64,000 bases of DNA. Origin: Candidatus Atribacteria bacterium (GTDB lineage Bacteria; Atribacterota; Atribacteria; Atribacterales; JASGLU01). The stretch is from the NCBI GenBank assembly GCA_030156825.1, contig JASGLU010000001.1, positions 2,556-66,555 of the forward strand, written 5' to 3'. The notes beneath the pieces are model-generated. The model saw nothing but the letters and a program-made list of their open reading frames with translations, was not told the origin of the DNA and searched no databases. The translations under genes were made by a program, and so were the position numbers. The stretch's first letter is position 1. Every line of letters starts with the position of its first letter. This document shows positions 11,339 through 35,347 of this stretch, piece by piece.

Positions 11339-12004
11339 ATGAAGCGCTGGTCTTTCTTCCTTACCATCTTCGGGCTTATCCTGATTATTCTGGTTTCCGG
11401 ATGCAGTAATTCTATAAATACTCCGGAAACCGGTTTTGACATTTCCTCTTCTCCCACCGCTGGTGGAACACTGGATAAGTTCATTGAGCTTTCTGATAAC
11501 AAAATCCTTCTTGATGTACCTTTTCTTCCTCAGGTTCCACCTGGTGATTGGGTAAATACCCGTAATTGTGGGCCTACCTGTGCGGTGATGATGCGGGCTT
11601 ACTATTTTGACATTCAACCCTTCCCTGACCATATCATTCAAGCCAATAACTGGCTTAATGCTCGTTTTGGCCTCCCGATTAACGGTTATAATGGTGACTG
11701 GACCAATATTTTTCAGATTCGTGCCTGGCTGGACAGCGAAGATGTGCCAACTAAAGTAGGGATGGGAAATCTGGAACGAGCTCAGGCTATGCTTTCTGAA
11801 GGTAAACCTTTTCTGGTGGCAGTTTATTCTAACATGAACCCCAGTGGCGGTGCTAAGCATGCTATGCTGGTAGTTGGTATCGACTCTAACAATATCTATG
11901 TCAATGACCCGGGTAAAGTTGCAGGAGCCAACAACTCTTATCCCATTTCTCAATTTCTTTCTGCCTGGGGCGCTCAGGGAAATTGGTATTTAGCTTTGGA
12001 CTAA
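11339..12004 (+). CDS. Peptidase C39-like (papain-fold cysteine peptidase) lipoprotein
   Basis: ATG 11339 lies 8 nt after GAAGGAGG. Signal peptide with lipobox LVSGC. Catalytic-type motifs NCGPTCAVMM (Cys), AKHAMLVVG (His) and YVNDP (Asp). Confidence 0.75.
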   Translation: MKRWSFFLTIFGLILIILVSGCSNSINTPETGFDISSSPTAGGTLDKFIELSDNKILLDVPFLPQVPPGDWVNTRNCGPTCAVMMRAYYFDIQPFPDHIIQANNWLNARFGLPINGYNGDWTNIFQIRAWLDSEDVPTKVGMGNLERAQAMLSEGKPFLVAVYSNMNPSGGAKHAMLVVGIDSNNIYVNDPGKVAGANNSYPISQFLSAWGAQGNWYLALD

Positions 12005-15254: not shown

Positions 15255-15296
15255 TTTAATAACACATTTACATCAGTTGTAAGTTTCAAGTAGATT

Positions 15297-15347
15297 AAAA
15301 ACACCTTCCGGCCAATTGGATTTAATAGATTGTCCGGAGGTGTTTTT
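15297..15347 (+). terminator. Rho-independent terminator of the adhesin gene
   Basis: AAAACACCTTCCGG ... CCGGAGGTGTTTTT: stem of ~10 bp with one bulge, followed by a T-run, 43 nt after the stop. Confidence 0.65.
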
Positions 15348-15675
15348 ACAGTAAGAAATCCGCAAATTGGAAAAAAAGTCCGGGTTATGAACCATATATA
15401 TTATTAAAGGAAATTTAAAGGTGTTTGGAACCATTACTAAGTAGTGATTTTTATTATAAAAAACAATAGCTCCAATGGCTTTTTTGGTTTCTCAAGATAA
15501 AATCCATGTTTAAATAGAGTGCTGGATTATTTCCCAAGAGTTAACCTGCGGGCTGGCGGTAATTGATGGTTATTTTATATGAGCTCTTTAGCCACCATTC
15601 CTACTGCCTTGAGTGGCCTTTATCTATTTTTAGGAGGAGTACTTCTAAGGGAAATCTAAAGGCTCTAAATACTGT

Positions 15676-16125
15676 GGACCCCTGATAAATACATTCAGGG
15701 GTGACGGATATAAGGGTGATAGAGACATTCAGGAATGATAGACTCGAGGAGATTTCACCCTAACCCTAATTCTTTTCCCTCAAGGGCTTCCCGCTTCTGT
15801 CGTTCCTAAATTTAGCTGGGAATCCAGACGAGCTTAAATACTTTTGGATCCCGGCTTAAAGATTGCCGGGATGACGGATGAGGAGGGTCGTTGCGATAAC
15901 AAGAAAAAAGGAGTTTATAAGGGGGGAAACGTTCCCCCTTATACTGAGGGACGCTTTTCCCCTCAGTAGTTCTTGTCTTTTATTCTATCTTTAAATTTTT
16001 GTTTTTAGTGCCGTAGGCTGTTCTGTTTTGTTTACGCCGTAGGCACGCTGGAGTGTTGTTCTCCAGCGTAGTTTTGTCCGAATCCTTTTTAATCTAATTT
16101 GCTTTTTGTTTACGCCGTAGGCTGT
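15676..16125. repeat. Cluster of hairpin repeats and CGCCGTAGGC/T-rich modules
   Basis: Hairpins at 15676-15707, 15799-15825, 15846-15877, 15917-15942, 15943-15967 and 16046-16068. (A/T)CGCCGTAGGC motifs near 16010, 16033 and 16110. Homologous modules occur at 23431-23545 and, inverted, at 31650-31665. Confidence 0.75.
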
Positions 16126-16132
16126 TCTTTTC

Positions 16133-16141
16133 TGCTATAAT
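16133..16141 (+). promoter_or_regulatory. Extended -10 promoter element (TGCTATAAT) for the kinase/regulator operon
   Basis: TGnTATAAT match ~45 nt upstream of start codon 16187. No good -35 element. Confidence 0.35.
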
Positions 16142-16186
16142 ATTATAAAAAGTTTTTTATTTCTTCTATGGTGGAGGGGCGGGGGT

Positions 16187-17716
16187 TTGGTAGAGCATAT
16201 CTTTAGCGGGAGTGAGATAAAAACCCTGGAGAGTATCACTGATAATGCCATAAAATTATCTGGTGCTCAAACTGGGTCTTTAGTCTTAGCCCATAGTGAT
16301 GGGAGTTTATTTATTGCTGCTGGCCAGGGATTGCGGGATGAGTATATCGGAGCTCCAATAAAATCGAATGAAGAAAGCGTATCAGAGCATGTTTTTAAAA
16401 CCGGAGAACCCTTAATTATCGAAGACCGCAATTATAGCCAGTTTTCTCGTCGAAGGAAAAGGGAAGATTATTCTATCTCGCTTCCCATTAAAAAATCTGA
16501 TGGAGCGGTGGTTGGTGTTCTTAACCTGAACCGGACTGATTATCCTTTTAGAGAAGAGGACGTTTCCCAACTGGAGATACTCACCGTTAATATCGCCATC
16601 ATCCTGGAAGAAAACAATATGCGCCGGAGTCGGGAACGCATTATTGTTGCTCTATCTGAAATTGTGGGGTTTTTTGCCTCTTTATTTTGCACTGATGCCT
16701 CAAATGACGTCTTTGAGAAAATATTTTATTCGGTGAAGACCTTAACCGGGGCGAGAAAGGCAGCGGTATTCAAACTTTCCAAAAAAAGACCTTATTTGGT
16801 TTTTGAGAAAGATTGGCCGAAACAGCTCCGGTGGCAAGCATTATCAGAAGTTAATGACCAAATCCAGGAGTGTATGGAGCAAAAGAAAATTATAACTATT
16901 GAACATAGTTCTCAGAATCTTTTCCTCTTTATCCCGTTGATATCGGAAAATCACTCTCCCTATCTTTTTGTAGGTGTTTTGAGAGAACCTATTACCATTA
17001 TCGATTATTTGGTGCTTTCCGCTGTGGTAAATATGGGGAATGCCACTCTGGAAAACATTACCCTTTACCAGAAAAGTAGAAGATTAGCTCAAGAAAGGGA
17101 AAGGAATCGATTAGCTCGTGAGCTGCATGATGGGCTAACGCAGATTATGGTTGCTACTCAAATTTATCTCCATCTTCTGGGGAAAAATCTGGAAAACACT
17201 GACCCTAATATTCTTGCGATTTTGCAAAAAGTTCAATCTTTGAATAAATTGGGTTTGGAAGAATCGCGCTTTATTCTTTCTGAGCTAAAAGGAAAACCAA
17301 TCACTCCTTTGCAATTCCGGGAGAGAATTGATGAAGCTATCAATCTCTTTGCTACTCCTGACAAAGAAATCAAGTTTGAATATAAAGTGGATGTTAAAGA
17401 AATTCCCTATCAAGTTTATCAAACGGTACTGAAAATTTTGCAAGAAACTTTATCTAATATTCAAAAACATGCCCAGGCTCAGAAAGTTACAATTTGTATA
17501 ACGAATAGTACACAGCAGATGATTTTCTCTATAGAAGATGATGGAGTAGGTTTTGACCCTCAAATTTTAGAAGAAAAGGAATCTGACCATTTCGGTCTTA
17601 AAAATCTTAAAGAAAGGGTTCGGGTTTTGCGAGGGAAATTTGATATTAACAGTCAACCGGGATGGGGAACAAAAATTATGGTAAAAGTTCCCTTACCGAG
17701 AGAAATAGCGGTTTAA
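16187..17716 (+). CDS. Cytoplasmic GAF-domain sensor histidine kinase (HisKA_3/NarX-DegS type)
   Basis: No TM segments and two GAF-like N-terminal regions. H-box RLARELHDGLTQ; HATPase motifs EDDGVGF, GLKNLKERV, GWGT. TTG start after GGTGGAGGGG. Confidence 0.85.
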   Translation: MVEHIFSGSEIKTLESITDNAIKLSGAQTGSLVLAHSDGSLFIAAGQGLRDEYIGAPIKSNEESVSEHVFKTGEPLIIEDRNYSQFSRRRKREDYSISLPIKKSDGAVVGVLNLNRTDYPFREEDVSQLEILTVNIAIILEENNMRRSRERIIVALSEIVGFFASLFCTDASNDVFEKIFYSVKTLTGARKAAVFKLSKKRPYLVFEKDWPKQLRWQALSEVNDQIQECMEQKKIITIEHSSQNLFLFIPLISENHSPYLFVGVLREPITIIDYLVLSAVVNMGNATLENITLYQKSRRLAQERERNRLARELHDGLTQIMVATQIYLHLLGKNLENTDPNILAILQKVQSLNKLGLEESRFILSELKGKPITPLQFRERIDEAINLFATPDKEIKFEYKVDVKEIPYQVYQTVLKILQETLSNIQKHAQAQKVTICITNSTQQMIFSIEDDGVGFDPQILEEKESDHFGLKNLKERVRVLRGKFDINSQPGWGTKIMVKVPLPREIAV

Positions 17717-17732
17717 CTTTTGGTATAGAGCT

Positions 17733-18380
17733 ATGAGAATGAGAGTTGCTATTGTTGACGACCATCCCATTTTTGCTGCTGGCTTAAAGCAATTGCTGGA
17801 AAGCGATGGCCGCTATGAAGTTAAGGCAGTGGCTCAGAGTGGAGAAGAAGCGCAGAAAGCTATTGATTTTAACGAGGTTGATGTTGCTCTGGTAGATGTC
17901 AATATGCCGGGAGGGGGTGGTATTGAGTTACTGAAAGCCATCAAACGACAGAGTAAAAATTGCCGGGTGATTATGTTGACGGTTGAGGAAGACGAAGAAA
18001 CTATTAATCGGGCAATGAAAGAAGGAGCCCAGGGATATATCCTGAAACAGGAGTCTCCTGAACACCTATTGAGAGCCATTCAGGCTTCTATGGACGGGGA
18101 AATACTCTTGAGTAGCCACGTCTATACTCGAGTGGTAGATAGAATCAGGAAGACTAGCCCTCCAGAAAAAGAGGAGTCAATTATATATAGCAAATTGACC
18201 GAACGAGAAATTGAAATCACCCGGTTGATAGTTCAAGGGAAAAACAATAAGCAGATTGCGCAGGAGTTATATATCAGTGAAAGTACGGTAAAAAATCATA
18301 TCAGTAACATTATGGATAAGTTATCGTTAAAAAATCGAACAGAGTTGGTTACTATGGCGGTGAGAGAGGGAATGCAGTGA
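17733..18380 (+). CDS. NarL/FixJ-family response regulator (REC + LuxR-type HTH)
   Basis: VAIVDDHP, phospho-acceptor context ALVDVNMPGGGG, C-terminal LTEREIEITRLIVQGKNNKQIAQELYISESTVKNHISNIM. The start may be ATG 17739. Confidence 0.9.
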   Translation: MRMRVAIVDDHPIFAAGLKQLLESDGRYEVKAVAQSGEEAQKAIDFNEVDVALVDVNMPGGGGIELLKAIKRQSKNCRVIMLTVEEDEETINRAMKEGAQGYILKQESPEHLLRAIQASMDGEILLSSHVYTRVVDRIRKTSPPEKEESIIYSKLTEREIEITRLIVQGKNNKQIAQELYISESTVKNHISNIMDKLSLKNRTELVTMAVREGMQ

Positions 18381-18435
18381 TAATAGTGCTGGATAGCACT
18401 TTCCATTTCCCAATATAGTACCTGTAGTGCTTGAA

Positions 18436-18453
18436 ATAGGAATTTAGTCCTAT
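18436..18453. promoter_or_regulatory. Palindromic operator-like site ATAGGAA-N4-GTCCTAT upstream of the orphan receiver gene
   Basis: Same 7-4-7 architecture and left half-site as 12391-12408. Lies ~55 nt before the 18509 start. Confidence 0.3.
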
Positions 18454-18508
18454 AGAAAACAGGTTAATTTTTTGGTATATTGATATTCAAGGTTGGAAGC
18501 TGTAGTTC

Positions 18509-18916
18509 TTGGAGGATGATGAGTTGACAACGCAGGTTAAAATCAGGCAGAAAAAAGTCTTTGTGGTGGATGATAACCGTTTTTTTCTGGAAAGCCTGGT
18601 GTTTCTTCTCAACCGGCAAGAAGATATAAAAGTAGTGGGCACCCACCACCGGGCGCGGGGGGTGTTACAAAAAATTAAAGCTGTCCAGCCCGACGTTGTT
18701 ATTCTGGATGTGCAACTTCCTGATGGTGACGGGATTAGTATCCTGCGAGAAATCAAGTCTCAGCTGCATATTCCAGTAATCATGCTTACCATTTATGAGG
18801 AAAACAGAGAACAAGCTATAAAAAACGGGGCCCATGCTTATTTGGTTAAAGGTGGAGAATTAGATACCCTTTATCAAGAGATTCGCCAGGCAGCAGGGGA
18901 AGCAAATAAACCTTAA
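18509..18916 (+). CDS. Stand-alone response-regulator receiver domain (CheY-like)
   Basis: VFVVDDN, VILDVQLPDGDG and AHAYLVKG motifs; no output domain. Start codon uncertain (TTG 18509 or TTG 18524). Confidence 0.8.
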   Translation: MEDDELTTQVKIRQKKVFVVDDNRFFLESLVFLLNRQEDIKVVGTHHRARGVLQKIKAVQPDVVILDVQLPDGDGISILREIKSQLHIPVIMLTIYEENREQAIKNGAHAYLVKGGELDTLYQEIRQAAGEANKP

Positions 18917-18932
18917 AAACTGTTTAAATTGC

Positions 18933-20174
18933 TCAGCTGCCTGGGATTTTTTTAAAAGTCTCTGGGGTCAGAGTTACCCCTTCAATCCCTTTCATTTCGG
19001 GAAACACTTCCAGTGCGCGGGGGAAAACTCCTTGCAGGTAAGCGATGATTACTCCGTAGTTAGTTATTGGAACCCCGGCTTTTTGCGCCTGATGCAGGCG
19101 GTAGCTCATCTCCTTCTGGTTAATCATGCATCCTCCGCATTGGACGATGAGCTGGTAATCCTCTAAGTTTTCCGGGAAGTTTACGCCGGCTACTACTTCA
19201 AACTGCAGGTCTCCTCCCACTCTTTGCCTCAGCCAACGGGGAATTTTTACCCGACCGATGTCGTCGGGCAAAGGGTGATGGGAACAAGCTTCGGCTATCA
19301 AAACCTTATCCCCCGGGTTTAACCTCTCTACGGTTTGTACCCCTTTTACGAAAGAGAAGAGATCTCCTTTGTAGCGGGCAAAGAGAATAGAAAAGCTGGT
19401 GAGGGGAATGGTAGGAGGAACAGCTCCAGCTACTTTGTGAAATACTTGGGAATCGGTGACCACCAGGCGAGGAGGTGTCTTCAACCGCTCCAGGGTTTCG
19501 GTCAGCTCTCTTTCTTTAGCCACCACCGCCACGGCTTCAGCATCTAAAATTTCTCGAATGGTTTGCACCTGGGGGAGTATCAGGCGACCCTTGGGAGCAC
19601 TAAGGTCAATCGGCACCACTAAAAGTACTACCTCTCCCGGGTTGATTAAATCTTTGATCAAAGGTTTTTCCTGATGATATTTTTGTAAAACTTCGACTAT
19701 GGCTTGCTTGAGCTGTAAAATTCCCTCACCGGTAATAGTGCTGGTAGGAAAGATAGGAATGTCAAGTGAGGAGGAGATTTCTTTCCCATCCTGGTCTATT
19801 TTGTTTTTCACCCCTAAGGTGATAACCTGGTTTTCTCGCAAGAGCTGTAAAAGCTCTCGCTCTAAAGATAGGTCGCTATTAACATCCCAGACTAAAAGGG
19901 CTACGTCACAACGACGTAATATCTCCAAAGACTTTTTCTTGCGCATTTCTCCCAGGAAGCCTTCGTCATCCAGTCCGGCAGTATCGATGATCACAACCGG
20001 TCCAAAAGGGAGTAATTCCAGAGATTTATATACCGGGTCAGTGGTGGTCCCCGACACATTAGAAACTATAGCTACTTCTTGATTGGTAAGAGCGTTGATG
20101 AGGGAAGATTTCCCTACATTTCTTCGCCCAAAAATTCCAATATGCGGTCTTAGGCCGCGGGGAGTAGAATTCAT
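18933..20174 (-). CDS. hydF: [FeFe]-hydrogenase H-cluster maturation GTPase HydF
   Basis: N-terminal GTPase motifs GRRNVGKSSLINAL, DTAG, NKID. C-terminal cluster-binding region EACSHH...QCGGC. Confidence 0.8.
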   Translation of the reverse strand: MNSTPRGLRPHIGIFGRRNVGKSSLINALTNQEVAIVSNVSGTTTDPVYKSLELLPFGPVVIIDTAGLDDEGFLGEMRKKKSLEILRRCDVALLVWDVNSDLSLERELLQLLRENQVITLGVKNKIDQDGKEISSSLDIPIFPTSTITGEGILQLKQAIVEVLQKYHQEKPLIKDLINPGEVVLLVVPIDLSAPKGRLILPQVQTIREILDAEAVAVVAKERELTETLERLKTPPRLVVTDSQVFHKVAGAVPPTIPLTSFSILFARYKGDLFSFVKGVQTVERLNPGDKVLIAEACSHHPLPDDIGRVKIPRWLRQRVGGDLQFEVVAGVNFPENLEDYQLIVQCGGCMINQKEMSYRLHQAQKAGVPITNYGVIIAYLQGVFPRALEVFPEMKGIEGVTLTPETFKKIPGS

Positions 20175-20200
20175 TATTTTTTCTCCTTTATTTTAATCTA

Positions 20201-20418
20201 TCTATCTTGTAAACGGCAATAATGGGGGCTTCGCCCCCCTTAAACCCCCCCTAAAACAATAAAAACATTTAAAAAAGCAAAAAACTTAAAAAATAAAAGG
20301 CAAAGACTTAAAAAACGAAAAGCTGAAAGGATAGACCACTATTGTTTCTCTAAGATTATATTGAATTCTGTTTTCATTGTTATCTGGTGCCCCGAAGGGG
20401 CATGGCCGTCTATCCTGG
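20201..20418. repeat. ~190-bp repeat, copy A (inverted relative to copy B at 23173-23359)
   Basis: The reverse complement aligns by eye with 23173-23359, with about 8 substitutions and one ~27-nt indel. Contains hairpins GGGGGCTTCGCCCCC and GGTGCCCCGAAGGGGCA. Lies directly 5' of hydF on the minus strand. Confidence 0.85.
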
Positions 20419-20854
20419 TATTCTTAGTTTAGATAACTCTTGAGAGTATAAAATTATTTCCAATTCTTCCTGCCTAAAGAGCTTTTTCCAGGAGTTCTTC
20501 ACATCTTTTGGGGGTTAGTCTCCATTCTTCGGATATATTTTTCTGCAAAAACAGCATACCCTGCATCGGCTCTTTAACCATGCTTTATTTACTCCTTTCC
20601 ATATCAAGGAGAACCAAACAAGCCTCTTTTTATTTTGAATTAACGGTAAAAATTACCAAGGAGGTTATTTTACAATTGGAGCATGTTTTCCTTGAGGGAC
20701 ACACCACCAATTTCTGCAACTACTAAATCTTACTCAATACCGCAATGAATGTATTTACACAGGCGATATCGCCTGAAATAAGTTTAAAGCCTTCGCTGAT
20801 GTTTTATCGTCTTTAATCATAAGACAACTACGAGCATCAAAAATGTAGAAGCTA

Positions 20855-22444
20855 TCACTCTTTCCTGATCGCCACGGAATAATTCTTGAACCTCTCAATT
20901 GCAAAATAAGGGTTATCAAAAAACTCCTTTTCTGAGTTATGTAAAATGTAAACTTGTCCCGGGAAGTGGTCAGCTTGAACTCCAAACAGGTAACAGTCAA
21001 ACGATTCTACCCACCGAAATGGAGCTTCGGGGTCGGAATACACTACCGATTTACAAAAAAGGTTGGGATCTATTTTTTGGTAAAACAAAATAAAAATGTA
21101 GGGCATATTTATTTTACTGGTGACGTAGATAGGCTCATCGGGTGGCGCTTTTTCGGTAGCATATTGAATAGCTTCATCCAGCGATTCAAAGAAAGCCGGA
21201 CCTGCGCTCTCGGGGTAAACAAAAAAGTAGGTATAAGTAAACAGGCCGAAAAACAGGGCATATAAAATTATTAAATATCGGAAAAAAATTTCAGCGTTCT
21301 TCTTTATATAAGAGATACCAATGGCTATGAAGTATATTACTGGCAGGAAAATTACATTAATTCTGTTGATATTTATGCTGGTTACAAATGCCATGATGGT
21401 AGCGACAAAAAACCAGGCTAAAATAATAAATTGGCGATTGAATTTTTTCCCGCCTCTATTTTCTCTGATTAAATGGAAAATCCCAAAAAACAAAAAGGGA
21501 ACGCTAAATAAAAACATATAACCATATTCAGGGATACAATTCCAAATCAATCCATCATTTTGGGTAACAAACAGTAACCACAAGAAGTTCCCCAAGTTAT
21601 AGATAGAGTTAGTAATGAACTGACTACTGAAAATAGAAGAGACAGCAGAAAATCTTGGAGCAGCAGGAAGTCTGGGTATAGAAAACCAAGGAGTTGAAAT
21701 GGAGTTTAGCTTGAAAATATTGATCGCCAAAAATAATAATATAGGTAGAGCAGCGATTAAAAATATTCCACCGCTTAAAAGAAAATTAGTCGTCCTGATT
21801 TTTTTGTGGAATAATAAGTATGAAGAGACCACGAGCAAAAAGATTGGTACAAAAAAATATGCTGTTCCATAGGAATAAAGAGATACAGCAAACACCAGAA
21901 AAGATAAAGGTAAAAAAGAAGGTTTCTCCAGAGAAAGCACCAAAAGGTAGCTGCCCATTAAAACAAAGAAAGGGAAAATGTTCGATTCCAGACCCCAACG
22001 CGACATCATTATATGCCACGGGCTTATGGTCAAAAGAAACAGAGCTATTATCCCTGTATCTTCATCCCTAATTTTCTTAACCAAGAGGTAAAAGATAACT
22101 AAAGATAAGCATCCTAACAAGGCATTTAAAATTCTCACCGAGAAGGGGTTTAAATCAAACAAGAGAATGAAAGGCATGGATAGGTAAGCGTAAAGTGCGT
22201 TTTGGCCACTTCCCCAGGAAATAAGATGAACAGGGTTATGGAAACCGTTTCGATCGATACCATAATGGAGAAGAGCCCAGGCATCATAACCAATGGAAGC
22301 TTCGTCTTGATTTAAGCCTGGAGGAATAATCCCCAATAGAAATAAACGAACAAATATCCCTCCGACAAATAGCAAAATAATCAGCCATTTTCTCTTATCC
22401 GTGAAAGATCGAAATCCGGATTCAGAGCGAAAAAGGGTAGTCAT
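20855..22444 (-). CDS. Glycosyltransferase family 39 (ArnT/PMT-like) integral membrane protein
   Basis: ~12 TM segments with the first periplasmic loop motif GLNQDEASIGYDAWALL. The C-terminal soluble domain is typical of PMT_2/ArnT-like enzymes. Confidence 0.7.
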   Translation of the reverse strand: MTTLFRSESGFRSFTDKRKWLIILLFVGGIFVRLFLLGIIPPGLNQDEASIGYDAWALLHYGIDRNGFHNPVHLISWGSGQNALYAYLSMPFILLFDLNPFSVRILNALLGCLSLVIFYLLVKKIRDEDTGIIALFLLTISPWHIMMSRWGLESNIFPFFVLMGSYLLVLSLEKPSFLPLSFLVFAVSLYSYGTAYFFVPIFLLVVSSYLLFHKKIRTTNFLLSGGIFLIAALPILLFLAINIFKLNSISTPWFSIPRLPAAPRFSAVSSIFSSQFITNSIYNLGNFLWLLFVTQNDGLIWNCIPEYGYMFLFSVPFLFFGIFHLIRENRGGKKFNRQFIILAWFFVATIMAFVTSININRINVIFLPVIYFIAIGISYIKKNAEIFFRYLIILYALFFGLFTYTYFFVYPESAGPAFFESLDEAIQYATEKAPPDEPIYVTSKINMPYIFILFYQKIDPNLFCKSVVYSDPEAPFRWVESFDCYLFGVQADHFPGQVYILHNSEKEFFDNPYFAIERFKNYSVAIRKE

Positions 22445-22507
22445 TTTTTCCTGTTTCTCTTTTCTGGTTTGGCTACCGGCTTAAAGTAGCTGTGGTTCCT
22501 TTTTGAC

Positions 22508-23059
22508 TTATTCGATGAGAATGAGAGCATAGTAATTAGGCTGGCAGCTTCTTGAGCGAACCACCTCAATTGGAAAACTATACTGTCTTACAGTTGAATA
22601 CACATCAATTCCACAGGCCTCCATGGAAGGACGAGCATACTCGGGGTGTGAGCAAGGATATTCTAAAGGACAGGGATTACACAGCTCACACGGCCCGGAA
22701 GGAATAGCCAACGCTTTATAATATCCAGAAAGAAAGAGAGTTCTCTCTAAATCAGTGGCAATCTTTCGCAGGTTACCATAATTTCCTGGTTTCCAGAGGA
22801 TAGCCGCCCGTCCATATTCTTCGAGCATTTTTTTGGTGCGGGAGGGTTCCGGGGAATATGGCGGACAGGTAAGGCTCTGTGCGTATCCGTCACAACCAAA
22901 CTGGCATTTAAACCGCACCCATTCGGCCACCACTACTGCTTGAGGATTAATAAACTGATAACTTTTGACTTTCCCGGTGAGCGTAGCTTCAAATATTTCA
23001 GTAAGGGTTTTCTCCTTCATGGCTTCCTCCCTCGATAGATTTACCTCATTGTACCTCAA
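22508..23059 (-). CDS. Cys-rich predicted metal-binding protein (DUF2284-like)
   Basis: Motifs CQFGCDGY...LTCPPYSPEP and CELCNPC...C. Assignment from motif memory only. Confidence 0.5.
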   Translation of the reverse strand: MRYNEVNLSREEAMKEKTLTEIFEATLTGKVKSYQFINPQAVVVAEWVRFKCQFGCDGYAQSLTCPPYSPEPSRTKKMLEEYGRAAILWKPGNYGNLRKIATDLERTLFLSGYYKALAIPSGPCELCNPCPLEYPCSHPEYARPSMEACGIDVYSTVRQYSFPIEVVRSRSCQPNYYALILIE

Positions 23060-23172
23060 AATTTAAAAGTTAGCCCAAGTTGCACCATAAGCTCCAGAAA
23101 TCAGCCTATATCAGGTCTTTTCTTTTGGGGATTCTCTTTTTCGGGTAACATAGACTAAAAGACTGATAGATA

Positions 23173-23403
23173 AGGATAGACCCCCATGCTGCTTCGGGGC
23201 ACCAGATAACAATGAAAACAGAATTCAATATAATCTTAGAGAAATAATAGTGGTCTATCCTTTCAGGTTTTCGTTTTTTAAGTCTTTGCCTTTTATTTTT
23301 TAAGTTTTTAGGGGGTTTAAGGGGGGCGAAGCCCCCATTATTGCCGTTTACAGGATAGACCCCCATGCCTCTTCGGGGCACCAGATGACAATGAAAACAG
23401 AAC
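23173..23403. repeat. ~190-bp repeat, copy B plus a partial tandem second unit
   Basis: 23173-23359 is the inverted partner of 20201-20418. 23353-23403 repeats the first ~50 nt (GGATAGACCCCCATGC..GGGGCACCAGAT.ACAATGAAAACAGAA). Confidence 0.85.
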
Positions 23404-23430
23404 CCCCTCCCTCGGAGGGGAAAGCCTTCT

Positions 23431-23636
23431 CATCCGTCATTCCCGAAATCCTTAATCGGGAATCCACTGAGGGAGGCTTTTTCTCCCTCAGTAATCTTTT
23501 GCATTTTCTGTTTTTCTTTTAGTCTTTTACTCTTACGCCGTAGGCTATTTTTCTTTCCTCAGTATGGTCTTTTTACGTTTTTTGATTTTTAAATGTTTTT
23601 AGTTTTTCGGGGGGTTATAGGGGGCGCTCCCCCTAT
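23431..23636. repeat. Hairpin-repeat cluster
   Basis: CATCCGTCATTCCCGAAATCCTTAATCGGGAATCC (23431-23465), ACTGAGGGAGGCTTTTTCTCCCTCAGT (23466-23492), ACGCCGTAGGC (23535-23545), ATAGGGGGCGCTCCCCCTAT (23617-23636). Same modules as 15846-16125. Confidence 0.75.
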
Positions 23637-24276
23637 TGTTTTGTACCAAATTATATCCTCGATAAGGCGCTTGCATCTCAAGGAAGGGAGTGCTTGCCTC
23701 TCCTTTTTCATACTTAAAATAAAGAACTTCGCCGGCTAAGTTGAACTGGATTAAAACCGTTTCTTCATCCTCCTCAATTTTGGTGGCTTTTCCACGCCAG
23801 AGCATGCCTGATATGGGGATAAGAATGGAAAAAATTTCTTCTTCCAGCTTTTCTGGGTCTAAAAAGTTTAAAAGAAAAGGCACTCCTTCGGCATCGAAAG
23901 TAATTTCTTTTAGGGGTACAGTGATTTGTTTTTCTCCTTGCGGGCTCTCGAGCGTAATCAAAGCATAGTCCGGGTAGTAATTTGTTTCCAGATACAGGGT
24001 GCCATTGGGCAGATTAATCCAGCTTTTGGAAGTAATGGGAGTAAAATCTGTTTGATTGATTATCAGCTGGGCACTTTTTTCGGGTTCGCTTTCTTCCCCT
24101 ACTTGAATAAAAGAGGTAATAGTCAGGTGGGAACTGTTTTCCTCCTGAAACAGGTGATATTCTATTTTCCCTACTATTTGCTCACCGGCCACTACTTGAT
24201 AGGTAAAGATTTCTTCTCCTTCGGCCAGCGGAGAAAGGAAAAACAGTATTAATCCGCTAATAGCAATAATTGTCAA
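23599..24276 (-). CDS. Hypothetical secreted protein
   Basis: N-terminal signal-like segment IIAISGLILFFLSPLAEG and 4-nt overlap with the upstream gene. The last ~12 codons are encoded by repeat sequence. Confidence 0.5.
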   Translation of the reverse strand: MTIIAISGLILFFLSPLAEGEEIFTYQVVAGEQIVGKIEYHLFQEENSSHLTITSFIQVGEESEPEKSAQLIINQTDFTPITSKSWINLPNGTLYLETNYYPDYALITLESPQGEKQITVPLKEITFDAEGVPFLLNFLDPEKLEEEIFSILIPISGMLWRGKATKIEEDEETVLIQFNLAGEVLYFKYEKGEASTPFLEMQAPYRGYNLVQNNRGSAPYNPPKN

Positions 24277-25025
24277 GAAGAGCTTTGGTTGTTTGATAAT
24301 AATTGATCACTCCTTTTTTCTCTTTGATATAAAAACCAGAGGATGGCCAATCCTATAATAAGAGTTAAGGGAAGAAGACTAATCAAGTATACTGCACTTA
24401 AAAAGGCAAGACTTGGCACAAACTGAGGGAGAAGTCGGGCTAAGTTTTCGAGTTCCTTTATCCCTAAAGCCAAAAGGAAAAAAATAAATGGGTTTCTTTT
24501 TTGAACTTGGGTCATTCGCAAAAAGGCAATCCCCAGAATGCCGAAAGCGATGGTTTCTATCTGAGCCTGGAGTAGTTTTTGAATTAAAAACGAAGTGGTG
24601 GGAAAATTGGCAAATTGACTGTAACCGTAAAAAGAGGATAGGGGGTGATAGTAGACCAAAAGTATATCCCGTAGCATTTTGCCCAGACCAAACCCCAGCC
24701 CTAAAAGAGGAAAGAGAAAAAAATTGGTGGGGGTAAAATGTTCGAGAGGTAGTCTTTGAGATAGCAACCAGCTTAGAAGAAAAGCCAGAAAAAGCTCGAG
24801 TAAAAGAATTAAGGTAGTGGATAAGAAGGCAGGGCCCAGGCCGGCAAAATAATCTAAAGTTATTTTTTCTATCCAGGGATAAGGAATAACCAGAGGAAGA
24901 ACAAAGGAGATAGAGTAGAAAATTACTATGTTTTTAGTAGAGATCGGGTTCTGACGAATAAAAATAAATTTAAAAGCTAAAGGTAAAAGTAGCAAGATTA
25001 AAATACTGAATAAAATGAAATTCAC
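24273..25025 (-). CDS. Hypothetical polytopic membrane protein
   Basis: ~7 hydrophobic segments, translationally coupled (4-nt overlaps) to nth and the downstream ORF. No recognised motif. Confidence 0.5.
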   Translation of the reverse strand: MNFILFSILILLLLPLAFKFIFIRQNPISTKNIVIFYSISFVLPLVIPYPWIEKITLDYFAGLGPAFLSTTLILLLELFLAFLLSWLLSQRLPLEHFTPTNFFLFPLLGLGFGLGKMLRDILLVYYHPLSSFYGYSQFANFPTTSFLIQKLLQAQIETIAFGILGIAFLRMTQVQKRNPFIFFLLALGIKELENLARLLPQFVPSLAFLSAVYLISLLPLTLIIGLAILWFLYQREKRSDQLLSNNQSSS

Positions 25026-25705
25026 TGAAGTTTTTCCACTCCTTTCTGCTCACAAAATGGTTGGATTTGACAGATAGAACAACGAGGAACACGGGGTAAA
25101 CATATGTTTTGCCCCCAGAGGACTAAAAGATTGTTGATAGGAATCCAATATTTTTGAGGGAGTTCCTTCCGAAGAGCTTCTTCTGTTTTTTCAGGGGTTT
25201 TGGTGTTCACTAAGCCCCATCGGTTGACAATTCGATGAACATGGGTATCCACACAAATACCCGCTTTACCAAAACCTACAGTGACAACCAGGTTAGCCGT
25301 CTTTCTTCCCACTCCCGGTAGCTCTAATAGTTGTTCCAGATTATCCGGGACTTTGCCCTGGTATCTTTCTAAGAGAATTTGGGCAATTTCTCTGAGATTT
25401 TTCGCTTTTTGACGGTAGAATCCAACTGGGTAAATAATTTCCGCCAGCTTCTCTTGCGGAATAGCCAAAATCTCAGCTGGAGTTTTGGCTATTGAGAAAA
25501 GATGGTTAGCAACTTTTTTGGTGATCGAATCCTTAGTACGTAAACTCAGAATACACCCTATTAAAATCCGAAAAGGGTCTTTTTCTCGAGAAGCGAGAGT
25601 TTCGTCTTGCCATTGGCTTTTCATTTCCTGTAAAATACGAAAGACTTGGGGTAAATCTTTTTTGTCCATGGCAATAATAATACTCTGAAGGGGGTAATCT
25701 ATCAA
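25022..25705 (-). CDS. nth: Endonuclease III (DNA glycosylase/AP lyase)
   Basis: HhH-GPD motif LPGVGRKTANLVV, catalytic D in VDTHVHR, C-terminal 4Fe-4S loop CLPRVPRCSICQIQPFC. The start may be the internal MDKKD (25669). Confidence 0.9.
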   Translation of the reverse strand: MIDYPLQSIIIAMDKKDLPQVFRILQEMKSQWQDETLASREKDPFRILIGCILSLRTKDSITKKVANHLFSIAKTPAEILAIPQEKLAEIIYPVGFYRQKAKNLREIAQILLERYQGKVPDNLEQLLELPGVGRKTANLVVTVGFGKAGICVDTHVHRIVNRWGLVNTKTPEKTEEALRKELPQKYWIPINNLLVLWGQNICLPRVPRCSICQIQPFCEQKGVEKLQ

Positions 25706-27163
25706 GTGAAGATATTAGTACTGGCAGCCTATATTGTTTTAATGTTGGGTGTTGGTTTTTATAGTATGAAAAAAACCAAAACAGTAGGCGATTTCTTCTT
25801 AGCTAATCGGAGTTTAGGTCCCTGGGTTTCGGCTTTTGCTTATGGAACTACTTATTTTAGCGCAGTACTTTTTATCGGTTATGCAGGAAGAATTGGCTGG
25901 GGGTTTGGTTTGTCCAGCCTTTGGATTGTAGTAGGTAATACCCTTTTGGGGTCTTTGCTGAGTTGGCTAATTTTGGCCCGCCGTACTCGTTTGCTTACCG
26001 AAGAGCTCCAGGCTATGACTATGCCCGAGTTTCTCTCTGCCCGATATGAAGCTCCGTTTTTAAAGTCCTTATCGGCCTTAATAATTTTTATTTTTTTGGT
26101 TCCTTATTCGGCTTCGGTATATATGGGTCTTAGCTATCTATTTGATGTGGTTATGGGTATCCCCTATGAATGGGCACTCTTGCTGATTGCTGCTTTAACC
26201 GGGATATATTTAGTTATGGGAGGATATTTTGCGGTTAGCATTTCTGATTTGATTCAGGGAAGTGTTATGGTGTTTGGGGTTATTTTTTTAATTTTTTACC
26301 TATTAGTTCAACCAGAGGTAGGAGGTTTTAGCCAGGCTATTACCCGCTTAAGAGAAGTTGATCCTGGCCTGGTTAAGGCGGTGGGGCCACCCGGTTTTTG
26401 GCCTCTTTTTGGTTTGGTGGTTTTGACCAGCCTTGGTCCCTGGGGACTTCCCCAAATGATTCAAAAATTTTACGCTCTAAAAAATGAACGGGTGATACTT
26501 ACCGCCACTATCGTGGCCACTCTTTTTGCTTTAATATGTACTTTTGGAGCTTATTTTACCGGTTCTCTTACCCATCTTTTTTTCGAAGAACCTCCTTTGG
26601 TAAATGGAGTATCAGACCCAGAATTGCTTGTGCCCAACCTTATTGTTCAAGTTATGCCTTCTGCTTTCACTTTGCTTTTTCTGCTTTTGATTTTTTCTGC
26701 TTCTATGTCCACCCTTTCTTCTCTGGTTTTAGTTTCTTCTTCGGCTATTGTGATTGATTTACTTCCTTCCCGCTACCAGAAACATTCTCTTTTACTCATG
26801 AGACTGTTTTGTGTAGTTTTTATCCTTTGTTCTTTGGTTATCGCTTTTTCCCGGAGTACTTTTATTGTGAATTTGATGTCTATTTCCTGGGGAGCTACTG
26901 CCGGGAGTTTTTTGGCCCCCTATTTGTATGGCTTATTCTGGAAAGGGGCCAATCGAGCAGGAGCTACCGTTAGTATGCTGGTTGGACTGGGTATGAGTGT
27001 GATTTTATCCTGGTATTATGGCTTTAATTCGGAAGTGGTGCCTTTAATTGGTTCTTTCTCTATGTTGGTTCCTCTTTTGGTGTTACCGATAGTTTCTGTC
27101 CTGCAAACTATGGCAGTACAGAAACTTAACGTAAGGAAACAGCCTGCGGCACTGAAAGATTAA
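25706..27163 (+). CDS. Sodium:solute symporter family (SSF) transporter
   Basis: 13 predicted TM segments. The N-terminal pattern GDFFLANRSLGPWVSAFAYGTTYFSA is typical of SSF (PanF/PutP-like). Confidence 0.8.
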   Translation: MKILVLAAYIVLMLGVGFYSMKKTKTVGDFFLANRSLGPWVSAFAYGTTYFSAVLFIGYAGRIGWGFGLSSLWIVVGNTLLGSLLSWLILARRTRLLTEELQAMTMPEFLSARYEAPFLKSLSALIIFIFLVPYSASVYMGLSYLFDVVMGIPYEWALLLIAALTGIYLVMGGYFAVSISDLIQGSVMVFGVIFLIFYLLVQPEVGGFSQAITRLREVDPGLVKAVGPPGFWPLFGLVVLTSLGPWGLPQMIQKFYALKNERVILTATIVATLFALICTFGAYFTGSLTHLFFEEPPLVNGVSDPELLVPNLIVQVMPSAFTLLFLLLIFSASMSTLSSLVLVSSSAIVIDLLPSRYQKHSLLLMRLFCVVFILCSLVIAFSRSTFIVNLMSISWGATAGSFLAPYLYGLFWKGANRAGATVSMLVGLGMSVILSWYYGFNSEVVPLIGSFSMLVPLLVLPIVSVLQTMAVQKLNVRKQPAALKD

Positions 27164-27202
27164 AAACGAAGAAAAAAGAAAAAGAGTTGGAGGTAGAAAA
27201 AA

Positions 27203-28216
27203 GTGTTAGTGTGCGTATTTGAAGGAAAAGAGCAGTGGGTAGTAAAGGAAGTTGATCCTCCAGATTTAGGGGAGGACGAAGTACTGATTCAGGTTAAAGC
27301 GGCCGGTATTTGCGGAACTGATATCCATATTCTGCGGGCAGAATATTTTCAGGATTTTCCTATCATCGCCGGCCATGAGTTTTCCGGTCAAGTTGTGGAG
27401 GTAGGGAGAAAGGTCAGTCAATTTAAAGTGGGAGATCGGGTAACGGCTGACCCTAATATTTTTTGCGATCGATGCTATTTTTGCAAAATTAATAAAAATA
27501 ACCACTGTTTAAACGCTCAAGCAGTGGGAGTAACCCGGAGCGGAGCTTTTGCCGAGCTGGTAGCGGTTCCTGAAAAGTGTATTTTTCCCATTCCGGAAAA
27601 TTTGACTTTTGCCGAGGCGGCTTTAGCAGAACCCTTAGCCTGTGTGGTTTATGGGGCAAAGCGAAGCGGTATCCAACCGGGAGAAAAAGTGCTTATTTTT
27701 GGCGCTGGCCCGATTGGGCTTTTACTTTTGGCTCTCTATAAAGTTTATGGTGCTTCCCAAATTGTGGTGGTGGATGTAAGTGAGAAGAAACTGGCAAAGG
27801 CGAAAGAATGGGGAGCAGACCTGGTAGTTTTGGCCGATGGAACAGAAGATAAACTCATTCGGGAAATTTCTCCTTTAGGGTTTGAACTGGTGGTGGATGC
27901 TACCGGCATTCCCCGGGTTCAAGAAAATGAGCTGCAGTTTATCCAGCCGGATGGTACTTATCTTTTGTTTGGAGTAGCGCCGGTAGGGTCGCAGATGACA
28001 ATTGACCCTTATTTTATTTTTCGGAATGATGTTCGAATTTTGGGGTCGTACGCGGTAAAGAAAACGATGCAATATGCTATCAACTTATTAACTCAGGGGA
28101 AAATACCGGTTAAAGAGCTGGTCTCTGCCTCTTACCCCTTGCCTCAATTTGGCCAGGCCTTGCAAGAGGTTTTGCACAACCCCGACCGACTAAAGATTCA
28201 AATTCATTTTGCTTAA
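27203..28216 (+). CDS. Zinc-dependent medium-chain alcohol/polyol dehydrogenase (threonine/sorbitol dehydrogenase-like)
   Basis: GICGTDIHI, GHEFSG, structural-Zn loop CDRCYFCKINKNNHC, Rossmann GAGPIGL. Confidence 0.85.
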   Translation: MLVCVFEGKEQWVVKEVDPPDLGEDEVLIQVKAAGICGTDIHILRAEYFQDFPIIAGHEFSGQVVEVGRKVSQFKVGDRVTADPNIFCDRCYFCKINKNNHCLNAQAVGVTRSGAFAELVAVPEKCIFPIPENLTFAEAALAEPLACVVYGAKRSGIQPGEKVLIFGAGPIGLLLLALYKVYGASQIVVVDVSEKKLAKAKEWGADLVVLADGTEDKLIREISPLGFELVVDATGIPRVQENELQFIQPDGTYLLFGVAPVGSQMTIDPYFIFRNDVRILGSYAVKKTMQYAINLLTQGKIPVKELVSASYPLPQFGQALQEVLHNPDRLKIQIHFA

Positions 28217-28227
28217 ATAGGTTTTAC

Positions 28228-29244
28228 ATGGCGACAGAGAGAAATTGTTTTTTTCAACCCGAAACCTTTTATTTTCAATGGCATCTTACCAACCGCTGTA
28301 ATTTGCGCTGTCGCCATTGCTATCAAAACGATTATCAGGGCCCAGATGACTCTCTCAACTTGCGAGTGGCCCAGAAGCTAATTGATCAGCTTAAAGCCCG
28401 CGGAGGGCAAGCTTCTTTAGATTTAACCGGAGGAGAACCTTTCCTCCTCGGGCAAACTTTGTTTGACCTTTTAGGTTTTTTAAACGATAGTCCTGAGATA
28501 GAAGAGTTGAAAATTATTTCTAACGGACTTCTCTTTTCCTCTTCCATTCAAGAGCGTCTCAGTTGTCTGAATAAACTTTCTACCATTAAAATTTCCTTGG
28601 AGGGGGCTTGTCCCGGGACCAATGATTGGATTAGAGGGAAAAATGAATTTGCCCGGGCGGTTGAAAAAATCGATTTAATCGATAAAAATCGATTTTCGGT
28701 AGTATTGATGTTTACTCTAACCAAGAGGAACCTGGATGAACTGGAGCTCATGTTGCATTTAGCCTATGAGTTGGGGGTAGATGGCTTAATTATAGAGCGA
28801 TTTGTTCCCGAAGGTAGAGGAAAAAAGATGACACCTGACCTTCTCCAGGCTAAGGATTGGAAAAAAGTATTAAATTGGATAACGGAGAAGATAGGGGAAG
28901 AAGATATTTCTCCTCTTTTACCCTATCGGGCGTTTTGGATCCAATTGAGACCTGAATTTCAAATCTTGGGTGCTCCCTGTAATTTGGGAGAATCACTTTG
29001 CCTTATGCCGGATGGTACTTTTTTCCCCTGCCGCCGTTTTGCTTACCCCCTGGGAAATATATTTCAAAATGATTTTGGGGAAATACTGAAAAAATCGCCC
29101 TTTTTGCAGAGAATAAAACAAAAAGAAAATCTGGAAGGTAAATGCAAAAGTTGTCCGATTAAAGAATGTTCAGGTTGTCGAGCTTTGGCCTTTGCCCTTT
29201 TCGGCAATCCTTTGGCAGAGGATGTTCAGTGCCCCTGGGAGTAA
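28228..29244 (+). CDS. Radical SAM enzyme with C-terminal SPASM-like Cys-rich domain
   Basis: CNLRCRHCY radical-SAM cluster motif. C-terminal CRRF...CKSCPIKECSGCRALA auxiliary-cluster motif. Confidence 0.8.
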   Translation: MATERNCFFQPETFYFQWHLTNRCNLRCRHCYQNDYQGPDDSLNLRVAQKLIDQLKARGGQASLDLTGGEPFLLGQTLFDLLGFLNDSPEIEELKIISNGLLFSSSIQERLSCLNKLSTIKISLEGACPGTNDWIRGKNEFARAVEKIDLIDKNRFSVVLMFTLTKRNLDELELMLHLAYELGVDGLIIERFVPEGRGKKMTPDLLQAKDWKKVLNWITEKIGEEDISPLLPYRAFWIQLRPEFQILGAPCNLGESLCLMPDGTFFPCRRFAYPLGNIFQNDFGEILKKSPFLQRIKQKENLEGKCKSCPIKECSGCRALAFALFGNPLAEDVQCPWE

Positions 29245-29251
29245 GCGAAAC

Positions 29252-30244
29252 TCAGGTATGGATTTCCACAATATCTTTGTCTTCGAGCGGGTGATCAACA
29301 GAAACTAACTGTCCATCAAATTTTCCCGATCCCCAAACCCGAGCACCTTTTATTTCCTGGGCTATATCCCGATGAATTTGCTCGGCTAAGTCTTTAACCG
29401 TCTCTCCCTTTTTCAGGATGAAAGGACGGCTAAGGTCAGGCGGTAATCCGGGGGGTTTACTGTATATTCGAATTATACCGGCTAACTGGAAAATTTTTTC
29501 TTTAATCCGCTCTATAGTTTCTTTATTTTTGGTCTTAAGGGAGATTCCTATTACTTCGGTTTTATCTTGCCAAAGCTCCTGGCACAGGGCTAAATTTTCT
29601 TGACTGCTTGGAGTCTCTACTTTGTTTAGCATAATTATTAAGGGTAAAAATGTCCAGCTAAGAGAAGGAAGGGGTCGAGGTAGAAAAGATATTTTAGATT
29701 TTCCTAAGGCTTTTTCCACTATTTCTATATCTTCTAATAATCGCTTACTGGTAGCATCAGCTATCAATAAAATAGCGTCTGCCCTCCGAAGAGCATTTGT
29801 GAAATTTCCTTCGATATTTTCATCAGCGATAGGAGGAAAGTCAATAAGCTGAATTTGAATGTCTTGATATTCCATCATGCCTGGAGTAGGGTAGTAAGTA
29901 GAAAAAGGGAAATCCGCTATTTCAGGTCTGGCTCGGGTTAAGGTAGCTAAAAAGGTAGATTTTCCGCTATTTGGTGGACCAACTATTGCTATCTGGGCCG
30001 CACCGGCTCTCTCGATGAAGTAAGGGTCATGATGGGTTTTGGCTTGAGATTTCTTTTCTCGCGTTGCTTGTTTTCTGAGTTTAGAAATTCGCTGTTTAAT
30101 TTCAGCTTGAAGTTTTTCGGTTCCTTTATGTTTGGGAATAATTGACAACATTTCTTCTAAGGCTTCTAATTTTTCTTGATTAGTGTGAGCCTGCCTGAAT
30201 TTTTTTTCTGCTTCAAGGTATTGAGGAGGAAGATTAGCTGGCAT
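29252..30244 (-). CDS. OBG/DRG-like GTPase with C-terminal TGS domain
   Basis: P-loop GPPNSGKSTFL and a C-terminal TGS-like region. The family's N-terminus usually begins MPANL, hence ATG 30244 rather than 30274. Confidence 0.75.
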   Translation of the reverse strand: MPANLPPQYLEAEKKFRQAHTNQEKLEALEEMLSIIPKHKGTEKLQAEIKQRISKLRKQATREKKSQAKTHHDPYFIERAGAAQIAIVGPPNSGKSTFLATLTRARPEIADFPFSTYYPTPGMMEYQDIQIQLIDFPPIADENIEGNFTNALRRADAILLIADATSKRLLEDIEIVEKALGKSKISFLPRPLPSLSWTFLPLIIMLNKVETPSSQENLALCQELWQDKTEVIGISLKTKNKETIERIKEKIFQLAGIIRIYSKPPGLPPDLSRPFILKKGETVKDLAEQIHRDIAQEIKGARVWGSGKFDGQLVSVDHPLEDKDIVEIHT

Positions 30245-30392
30245 CAACATCACCCTGGTACTTTTTATAGGCAAAACCTCTTATGGTTATCCCTCCCTTA
30301 CGCCTCTTGGGTCAAAGACGAGGAATTATTTTGTTATTTTGTATGAGATTACGGGTTAAGTATATTCAGTATAGATTTTTCTCGTTAAACAA

Positions 30393-30423
30393 CCGGGGGA
30401 GCGTTTTCTGTAATCTCCCCCGG
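30393..30423 (-). terminator. Hairpin terminator downstream of the DUF362 gene
   Basis: Perfect 9-bp stem CCGGGGGAG/CTCCCCCGG with a 13-nt loop, followed on the minus strand by TTGTTT. Confidence 0.5.
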
Positions 30424-30454
30424 AAAAGATTAAAAGTGAAAGGGGATTATTGCT

Positions 30455-31570: not shown

Positions 31571-31645
31571 TTGACCACCTCCCAAGCTAAAGTTTTTGGG
31601 TGAGACGTTATCTACCATAGGGGGCATGCCGCCTATTGCCCCCAA

Positions 31646-35313: not shown

Positions 35314-35347
35314 TATCCGGTGCTCCGAAGTGGCATGAGGGTTTATC
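35314..35347. repeat. Partial copy of the GGTGCNCCGAAGNGGCATG hairpin end of the ~190-bp repeat
   Basis: TATCCGGTGCTCCGAAGTGGCATGAGGGTTTATC versus TATCTGGTGCCCCGAAGGGGCATGGCCGTCTATC at 20381-20414. Confidence 0.6.

Follow-up and report, generated by a model that had tools for sequence, protein, structure and literature searches.

We analysed a 64-kb stretch of an Atribacterota metagenome-assembled genome (MAG), hereafter the window, whose first letter is position 1. In the window, two nearly identical repeats of about 190 bp, copies A and B, bracket a DUF2284 gene and an ArnT-type glycosyltransferase gene in inverted orientation, and copy A lies directly upstream of hydF. We consider it probable that copies A and B are two opposite-orientation insertions of a clade-specific dispersed intergenic repeat of Atribacterota. 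The repeat unit is built of three modules, M1, a T-rich spacer and M2, which are also found separately and in head-to-tail arrays. The family is gained and lost, because the unit is present or absent at orthologous sites: the related contig L093 is empty around the same genes, and contig L007 is filled at a site where the window has no M1 or M2.

Global alignment of the reverse complement of copy A with copy B gave 179 matches, 8 mismatches and one 29-nt indel, corresponding to 95.7% identity over 187 aligned nt (coordinates in Table 1). The indel is a T-rich stretch present in copy A and missing from copy B. A repeat finder reported the inverted arms as 20269-20416/23173-23320 (148 nt, 93%) and 20201-20264/23296-23359 (64 nt, 88%). 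It also reported a direct half copy, copy C, which shares 94% identity with nt 1-51 of copy B. A 23-nt core pattern matched the window four times (copies A, B and C and 35315-35337) and had no match in 100 shuffles. A sequence-only reading of the window had described inverted repeats of ~190 bp with ~8 substitutions and one indel of ~27 nt, and this description is confirmed as accurate. The other details that it gave were also found, namely the partial tandem unit on copy B, the 34-nt fragment at 35314-35347 and, inside the unit, a 10-bp inverted repeat, two G/C hairpins and a TATAAT box. The fragment lies in a 54-bp spacer between two Mrp/Mbh-type antiporter operon genes and is oriented as the operon.

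M1 is a palindromic module of 65-100 nt, in which the 10-bp inverted repeat AGGATAGACC/GGTCTATCCT encloses a hairpin and an invariant stretch GCACCAGAT..ATGAAAA. In the alignment of all copies, the order is AGGATAGAC, CCTCAT, a hairpin TGCNNN-loop-NNNGCA, CCAGAT(G/A)A..ATGAAAA(C/T), a variable part and GTCTATCCT. Long forms of M1, including those of copies A and B, have an extra insert of ~35 nt bearing TATAAT, which is missing from the short forms, and 5' halves of M1 are found alone (copy C, L006r, L025b and the 35314 fragment). In copy A, the M1 arms AGGATAGAC (20416-20408) and GTCTATCCT (20336-20328) enclose the hairpin GCCCC-TTC-GGGGC, the TATAAT-bearing insert and the invariant stretch, here GCACCAGAT..ATGAAAAC. 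The spacer module is T-rich with T-runs about every 10 nt. M2 is a G/C hairpin ending in GTTTAC, of the form GGGGG-TTATAA-GGGGGG-loop-CCCCCC-TTATTGCCGTTTAC with variable loops, and M2-only copies are common. M2 of copy A is followed by a truncated arm, AAGATAGA, at 20208-20201. Arrays at all six independent sites start with AGGATAGAC and end with GTTTAC and a truncated arm A(G/A)(G/A)ATAG(A/T), and each unit contains three AGGATAGAC-type sites in the order forward, reverse, forward. The observed forms include M1 long, M1 short, M1 5' half, M2-only and arrays such as M1-M2-M1short-M3.

The modelled M1 structure is likely real, as judged from a small sample of 12 copies with related sequences. 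Across these 12 distinct copies, 96.8% of the cells in the outer stem and the hairpin pair, against 39-52% in slid controls, and in three M1 pairs both partners are changed. Observed versions of the hairpin are GCCCC/GGGGC, GCTGC/GCAGC, GCCGC/GCGGC and GCCAT/ATGGC. Short M1 forms gave folding z-scores of -3.0, -5.3 and -6.9, and the M1 covariance model (CM) is strand-specific, with 119 bits on the forward strand vs 19.6 bits on the reverse strand. Whole units folded no better than shuffles on either strand (z about -1). An extra M1 helix, CCTCAT/ATGAGG, was rejected since it is not conserved and only 60% of its cells pair.

Related lineages carry the unit in other places. The 23-nt core pattern was found in bioreactor metagenomes on 11 contigs, which represent five distinct sites. 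These units are 83-85% identical to the window copies, and their flanks are unrelated. The only syntenic coding DNA, that of L007, is 68-70% identical, compared with ~84% for the unit, so conservation is higher in the unit than in the coding DNA at its flanks. The unit lies between toxin-antitoxin-like small open reading frames (ORFs) in L011 and between convergent genes in L005; in L006, an fba-like gene follows it directly. Three units lie between two co-oriented genes in L007, and the window homologues of these genes (25706-27163 and 27203-28216) are 40 bp apart, a gap that holds a short T-rich M3-like module but no M1/M2 unit. L007 (1526-2021) and L011 (7786-8137) have arrays in which as many as three M1 modules, long and short forms mixed, follow one another head-to-tail, and the L007 array is antisense and ends 8 nt from the ribosome-binding site (RBS) of the downstream gene. 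Inverted copies in L006, at 5838-6026 (+) and 7758-7816 (-), bracket the fba-like gene and a small ORF over 1.9 kb. The arm polarity of this pair is the reverse of the one seen in the window, which speaks against a composite element of fixed geometry. Profile and CM searches found diverged copies in Ca. Atribacter alterifermentans (L025) and no unit in the hydF neighbourhoods of Caldatribacterium and Atrimonadaceae. The presence of several copies, raised as a possibility in the sequence-only reading, is thus borne out by five sites at unrelated contexts in relatives and by the diverged L025 copies. The core scan of viral contigs gave 0 matches, and therefore no phage link. IS21 insertion sequence ends in L011 were considered as kin of M1 and rejected, as they share only an 8-mer that we judged to be chance.

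The same genes were compared in relatives. In L093-L102 (more than 10 assemblies, 85% ArnT identity), DUF2284, ArnT and hydF are co-directional as in the window. Their 320-bp ArnT-hydF spacer is free of the unit, and only an M2 module is found upstream of DUF2284. DUF2284 followed by ArnT in the window orientation was observed in three related lineages with ArnT identities of 85%, 84% and 97%, namely L093-L102 and two others, L104 (97%) and L105 (79% nt). Of the three, only L093-L102 has contigs that reach hydF, and a single orientation is seen in every assembly that reaches it. Since L093-L102 are co-directional and do not have flanking full units, the window orientation is ancestral and both units are lineage-specific gains.

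Several observations weigh against a dispersed, mobile repeat. No target-site duplication (2-10 bp, TA or other) was found at the flanks of seven independent arrays, and no parent insertion sequence or transposase with the unit termini was seen in the 64-kb window and the ~10-kb pieces of relatives. Mobility is inferred from presence and absence only, because there is neither a target-site duplication nor a cognate transposase. The M1 CM found only two full copies, one half copy and one fragment in 64 kb, and the 23-nt core scan had 0 matches in the GTDB representative genomes, a collection with neither the window MAG nor, in matchable form, its closest kin. In addition, the strong conservation of the unpaired M1 stretch, which is invariant across lineages, poorly fits a simple selfish-repeat model. 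With respect to a promoter function of the unit, the frequency of promoter matches in an 800-bp scan was at the shuffle level. The unit is in sense directly upstream of a gene at only 2 of ~7 independent sites, so promoter donation is incidental at best.

We hypothesized how the unit may spread and affect its neighbours. A putative trans-acting protein probably recognizes the AGGATAGAC arms and spreads the unit, and the arrays may grow in tandem by unequal exchange at the 8-nt AGGATAGA junctions. Copy A probably donates a promoter and a U-rich leader to hydF, with the fba-like gene of the relative as a parallel case. Both M1 modules of the window contain a sigma-70-like match in the M1-to-M2 direction. 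Its -10 box, TATAAT, persists in the long forms, with TACAAT in one copy from a relative, and the -35 box is variable. The end of copy A is 27 nt from the hydF ATG (20174). At two independent sites, a unit ends no more than 30 nt ahead of the RBS and ATG of a gene with which it shares its orientation: hydF in the window and, in L006, the fba-like gene, which has a divergent upstream neighbour. Because two independent units are positioned in this way, donation of an internal promoter and U-rich leader to hydF is plausible, although a single consensus match is in itself no evidence for a function. The leader role suggested for copy A by the sequence-only reading is plausible, given the promoter-like site in the unit and the second case in L006, but most copies do not lie upstream of a gene in this way. 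M2 as an intrinsic terminator was rejected, as it failed the T-tail criterion of the scan in copies A and B. Read-through of M2 toward hydF would be possible because M2 is not a canonical terminator. Copy B, ~150 nt upstream of DUF2284, is oriented away from this gene. Between the two, at ~23048-23062, lies a promoter-like TTTTGAGGTACAAT that relatives conserve, and DUF2284 would keep it as its own promoter. Bracketing of DUF2284-ArnT would then be a by-product of two insertions and not a dedicated switch.

Alternatively, the repeats may be substrates of RecA-type or site-specific recombination that inverts DUF2284-ArnT and switches genes behind the unit promoter. Arms with 95.7% identity over 187 aligned nt are long enough for RecA-mediated inversion, and the promoter-like sites of both arms face outward from the segment. 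However, the lineage with 85% ArnT identity is co-directional without flanking units, the unit is single at unrelated loci, and the breakpoints are outside the conserved DUF2284 promoter, so that a switch would change little. Pfam and NCBIfam scans found no recombinase or transposase in the genes of 16187-31645, nor any recombinase gene within about 10 kb, with two neighbouring genes matching no family. Logan short-read unitigs from the same organism stop inside copy A, where L001 corresponds to 18261-20232 and L106 to 20388-23122, the inter-repeat segment alone. Runs SRR23823868 and SRR23823869 carry identical sequence. The unitigs break in the repeats and therefore neither confirm nor deny a minority orientation; independent assemblies in this respect do not fix the orientation. 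Segment inversion, which the sequence-only reading had raised, is not supported given three lineages in the window orientation, no nearby recombinase and a unit dispersed at unrelated loci. Dispersed copies in unrelated contexts had been set beforehand as an outcome counting against inversion, and they were found. We regard inversion as highly improbable, although it may occur at low frequency through RecA. The unitig ends inside the repeats, with no bridging, would also be compatible with an assembly artefact, in which the MAG contig was mis-joined or the segment was flipped at the repeat. Against this, variants specific to copy A are found at the unitig ends on either side, and the order DUF2284, ArnT, hydF is present in more than 10 independent contigs of the relative, which leaves such an artefact barely credible. 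A further possibility is that the repeats bound a laterally exchanged DUF2284-ArnT cassette, recombining in or near them as portable homology. Between the window and L093, DUF2284 is 84% and ArnT 85% identical in amino acids (80% nt), whereas the adjacent hydF is 68% identical in amino acids (compared blocks, window 20859-23103 vs 18933-20174; L093 9429-13139). hydF is about equidistant, at 67-72%, among all Atribacterota lineages sampled. Because of this difference and the equidistance of hydF, these comparisons place a breakpoint of evolutionary history in the spacer holding copy A. It may reflect lateral replacement of the DUF2284-ArnT block or of hydF, or alternatively unequal evolutionary rates. 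The high-identity block 23103-20859 is inside the repeat-bracketed interval. Synteny with L093 stops beyond hydF, and past copy B the two have different genes and share intergenic modules only. On the other hand, full units are missing from the block borders in the L093 lineage, the repeats are inverted and not direct, with no composite-transposon geometry, and the L006 pair is of opposite polarity. Unequal rates or hydF replacement could give the same discontinuity, and the comparator with 61% ArnT identity (L103) has other surroundings and is possibly a paralogue. Of the mobilised cassette proposed in the sequence-only reading, one indirect hint thus stands, the identity jump from 84-85% to 68%, but the relative does not have full units at the borders, and we consider the cassette unlikely.

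The unit may also be a multi-copy small RNA (sRNA) gene or another functional structured RNA. In one version, a U-rich RNA of ~115-145 nt would extend from the internal promoter to the M2 hairpin; in the other, M1 would be a structured RNA motif acting in cis on mRNA stability or processing. Covariation of the hairpin and outer stem, the strong strand specificity of the CM, G-U pairs in one orientation (5 G-U cells vs about 2 C-A) and the invariance of the unpaired stretch among lineages are in line with an RNA. So are the order of promoter-like site, U-rich body and G/C hairpin and the fragment in the Mrp-operon spacer, which is oriented as the mRNA. However, the full unit folds like shuffles, the short forms are without a promoter, the M2 tail is not a canonical terminator, and the orientation to genes is inconsistent. 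The covariation comes from 12 sequences and three pairs only. Rfam 15 has no family over the units, with the window searched at gathering thresholds and both repeat regions even at E<=10, and a tRNA/tmRNA scan gave no match. Taken together, an RNA gene or motif appears rather improbable. Of three proposals of the sequence-only reading, a structured leader or sRNA in several copies was the closest, in that the unit is dispersed and multi-copy; the RNA role is the part that we rate low. We give similarly little weight to a broader proposal, that the M1 core (stem AGGATAGAC/GTCTATCCT, covarying hairpin, GCACCAGAU(G/A)A..AUGAAAA) is a new functional structured nucleic acid exchanged among Atribacterota and not merely selfish DNA. 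Such a core could be a cis-acting RNA motif or a multi-copy sRNA. It could also be a folded single-strand recombination site, with the AGGATAGA core duplicated at array ends in an att-core-like manner, and gene blocks such as DUF2284-ArnT would then be exchanged at points marked by the units. A hammerhead-like reading of CAGAUGA...GAAA was rejected, as the essential U4 and stem II of that motif are absent. Mini-ORFs in M1 (MPLRGTR*, MKT...) were rejected as coding because frame and length vary among the copies.

A dispersed intergenic repeat of this kind resembles several known systems. Like the BOX elements of Streptococcus pneumoniae (boxA-boxB(n)-boxC), the unit is modular and intergenic, its modules vary in number and occur in tandem, and its sub-modules are found in variable number and alone. 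Both are under ~200-600 bp, have predicted stem-loops and are dispersed at unrelated loci. BOX elements can stimulate downstream gene expression (PMC3049150). Unlike BOX, the unit has one module with a complete -35/-10-like site, and its arrays close with the arm of the first module, repeated directly over 8 nt. Since the phyla are unrelated, the likeness concerns the functional class only, and we do not claim membership by descent. The Correia (CREE/NEMIS) elements of Neisseria, RUP and ERIC/IRU are, like the unit, ~100-150 bp long, intergenic and present or absent between strains; they are closed by terminal inverted repeats, which in the unit belong to M1 only. The terminal inverted repeat of Correia is 26 bp, and the inverted repeat of M1 is 9-14 bp. 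Correia insertions create functional promoters, and the elements are RNase III targets when transcribed (PMC3049150, PMC3184786). MITEs, or miniature inverted-repeat transposable elements, are defined by terminal inverted repeats of at least 10-15 bp (PMC11602168). M1 alone has the perfect inverted repeat AGGATAGACC/GGTCTATCCT, which is 14 bp in one copy. The whole unit has no terminal inverted repeat; it starts with AGGATAGAC and ends with GTTTAC+AGGATAGA, a direct repeat. As with MITEs, to which Correia, RUP and ERIC/IRU belong, many unrelated intergenic sites show presence and absence (five sites in relatives, two in the window and more in L025). Unlike MITEs, the interior of the unit is more conserved than expected, and M1 is linked to a non-palindromic spacer and M2.

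REP/BIME and REPIN elements, which are mobilised by RAYT, share with the unit short G/C-rich hairpins in intergenic mosaics. REPs in operon spacers can stabilise the upstream mRNA, and the 35314 fragment is in such a position. Unlike REPIN, M1 is not a doublet of equivalent REPs; it has a single inner hairpin and a 3' part that is long and unpaired, which makes it asymmetric, and its conserved unpaired stretch has no REP counterpart. No RAYT gene was found in the window or in the pieces of relatives. Invertons also have inverted repeats flanking a segment and promoter-like sites in the arms. Their repeats are usually 10-30 bp and lie beside an invertase, whereas here the arms are 190 bp, there is no invertase, one orientation is observed, and the arms are single elsewhere. 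By analogy, the unit appears BOX/Correia/ERIC-like in behaviour, that is, modular, predicted to fold, gained or lost and possibly supplying a promoter, and it is not a member of these families by sequence.

The unit is an ordinary kind of bacterial repeat, though an undescribed one, and overturns nothing in current understanding. In the literature searched, we found no description of Atribacterota intergenic repeats. Atribacterota are abundant in anaerobic digesters and subsurface sediments. To our knowledge, little genetic work has been done on the phylum, and we know of no genetic tools for it. A catalogue of the modules would account for the points at which MAG and unitig assemblies in this clade are interrupted, help to recognize spurious ORFs called over repeats and offer candidate native promoters and leaders for Atribacterota. 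Because the units are more conserved than neighbouring genes and copy A coincides with a divergence breakpoint, recombination or exchange among co-resident lineages may have its hot spots at the repeats.

The genes from 25705 down to 18933 are all on the minus strand and encode an HhH-GPD glycosylase, two proteins of no family, DUF2284, the ArnT/PMT_2 glycosyltransferase and HydF. The two ORFs with no family match are 23599-24276 and 24273-25025. Domain scans agree with the sequence-only reading that the repeat pair encloses an ArnT/PMT-like glycosyltransferase and DUF2284. For DUF2284, ATG 23020 is a likelier start than 23059 and gives a protein of 170 aa, the length seen in relatives. In the NCBIfam ArsM/DUF2284 and MbdU selenoprotein models, it is the C-terminal domain that the DUF2284 protein matches, with E about 1e-31, far below the cut-offs. 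This domain stands alone here, with Cys residues, and its pairing with the ArnT-like glycosyltransferase is kept across lineages. ArnT has an identical counterpart at NCBI, a 'Candidatus Atribacteria bacterium' protein, and HydF is 67-74% identical to homologues from Caldatribacterium, Atribacter and Atrimonadaceae. A 71-aa ORF called between ArnT and hydF in relatives is not conserved in the window and was rejected as probably spurious.

Table 1. Repeat copies, their modules and adjacent genes in the window.
Feature	Position	Strand	Evidence
Copy A, full unit (M1 + T-rich spacer + M2 + trailing 8-nt arm)	20201..20418	-	nhmmer E=9.5e-56
M1 of copy A	20328..20416	-	CM 119 bits
Sigma-70-like match ATAACA-17-TATAAT (10/12) in M1 of copy A, toward hydF	20355..20383	-	
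M2 of copy A: G-run, TTTAA, GGGGGC-GAA-GCCCCC hairpin, ATTATTGCCGTTTAC	20209..20252	-	
Copy B, full unit without the 29-nt T-rich stretch of copy A	23173..23359	+	E=1.5e-53
M1 of copy B	23173..23261	+	118 bits
ATAACA-17-TATAAT (10/12) in M1 of copy B, away from DUF2284	23206..23234	+	
Copy C, M1 5' half only, head-to-tail with copy B via junction GTTTAC/AGGATAGAC	23352..23402	+	CM 44 bits
M2-only copy (T-rich, GGGGGG TTATA GGGGG-CGCT-CCCCC, T-rich tail)	23596..23636	+	Repeat finder
Degenerate M1 5'-half fragment (hairpin + ACCGGAT)	35314..35347	-	Core-pattern match
hydF, [FeFe]-hydrogenase maturation GTPase, directly downstream of copy A	18933..20174	-	Pfam/NCBIfam scan
Non-coding spacer of 436 bp, ArnT stop to copy A, without convincing ORF	20419..20854	.	
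ArnT/PMT_2-type glycosyltransferase, between the repeats	20855..22444	-	Pfam/NCBIfam scan
DUF2284 Cys-rich metal-binding protein	22508..23020	-	Pfam/NCBIfam scan

Repeats also affect ORF calls in the window. ORFs of 23-91 aa at 23106-23381 (-), 23348-23467 (-) and 20361-20432 (+) cross the repeat units and share the peptide SVFIVIWCPE.AWGSIL; none of these ORFs occurs in the protein database searched, and they are repeat artefacts. The spurious 91-aa ORF over copy B, used as a protein query to list copies, gave no candidates. The sodium:solute symporter ORF at 25706-27163 runs with its last ~30 codons (27100-27163) into a T-rich and GTGCCGCAGGCTG repeat module. Its homologues align to residues 1-453 only, so the annotated C-terminus is probably repeat-derived. 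The spacers 15254-16187, 23059-23599 and 31645-32304 are mosaics of up to 930 bp with no ORF and at least three further short repeat families, which were noted at 15254-16187, 23403-23560 and 31645-32304. These are hairpins GTCATTCCCG-N-CGGGAATCC / CACCCCGGC-N-GCCGGGGT, hairpins CTGAGGGA-N-TCCCTCAG and a (GTTTA)CGCCGTAGGCTG motif. The sole Rfam match of the window is a c-di-GMP-I riboswitch (RF01051) at 11166-11251 (+), with 88 bits and E=4.6e-16. The ORF 11171-11953 on the strand opposite the riboswitch has no family match and may be spurious. About 1.2 kb past the riboswitch, the next long ORF on its strand, 12480-15254 (+), encodes a 924-aa surface protein with SdrD_B/CarboxypepD_reg repeats.

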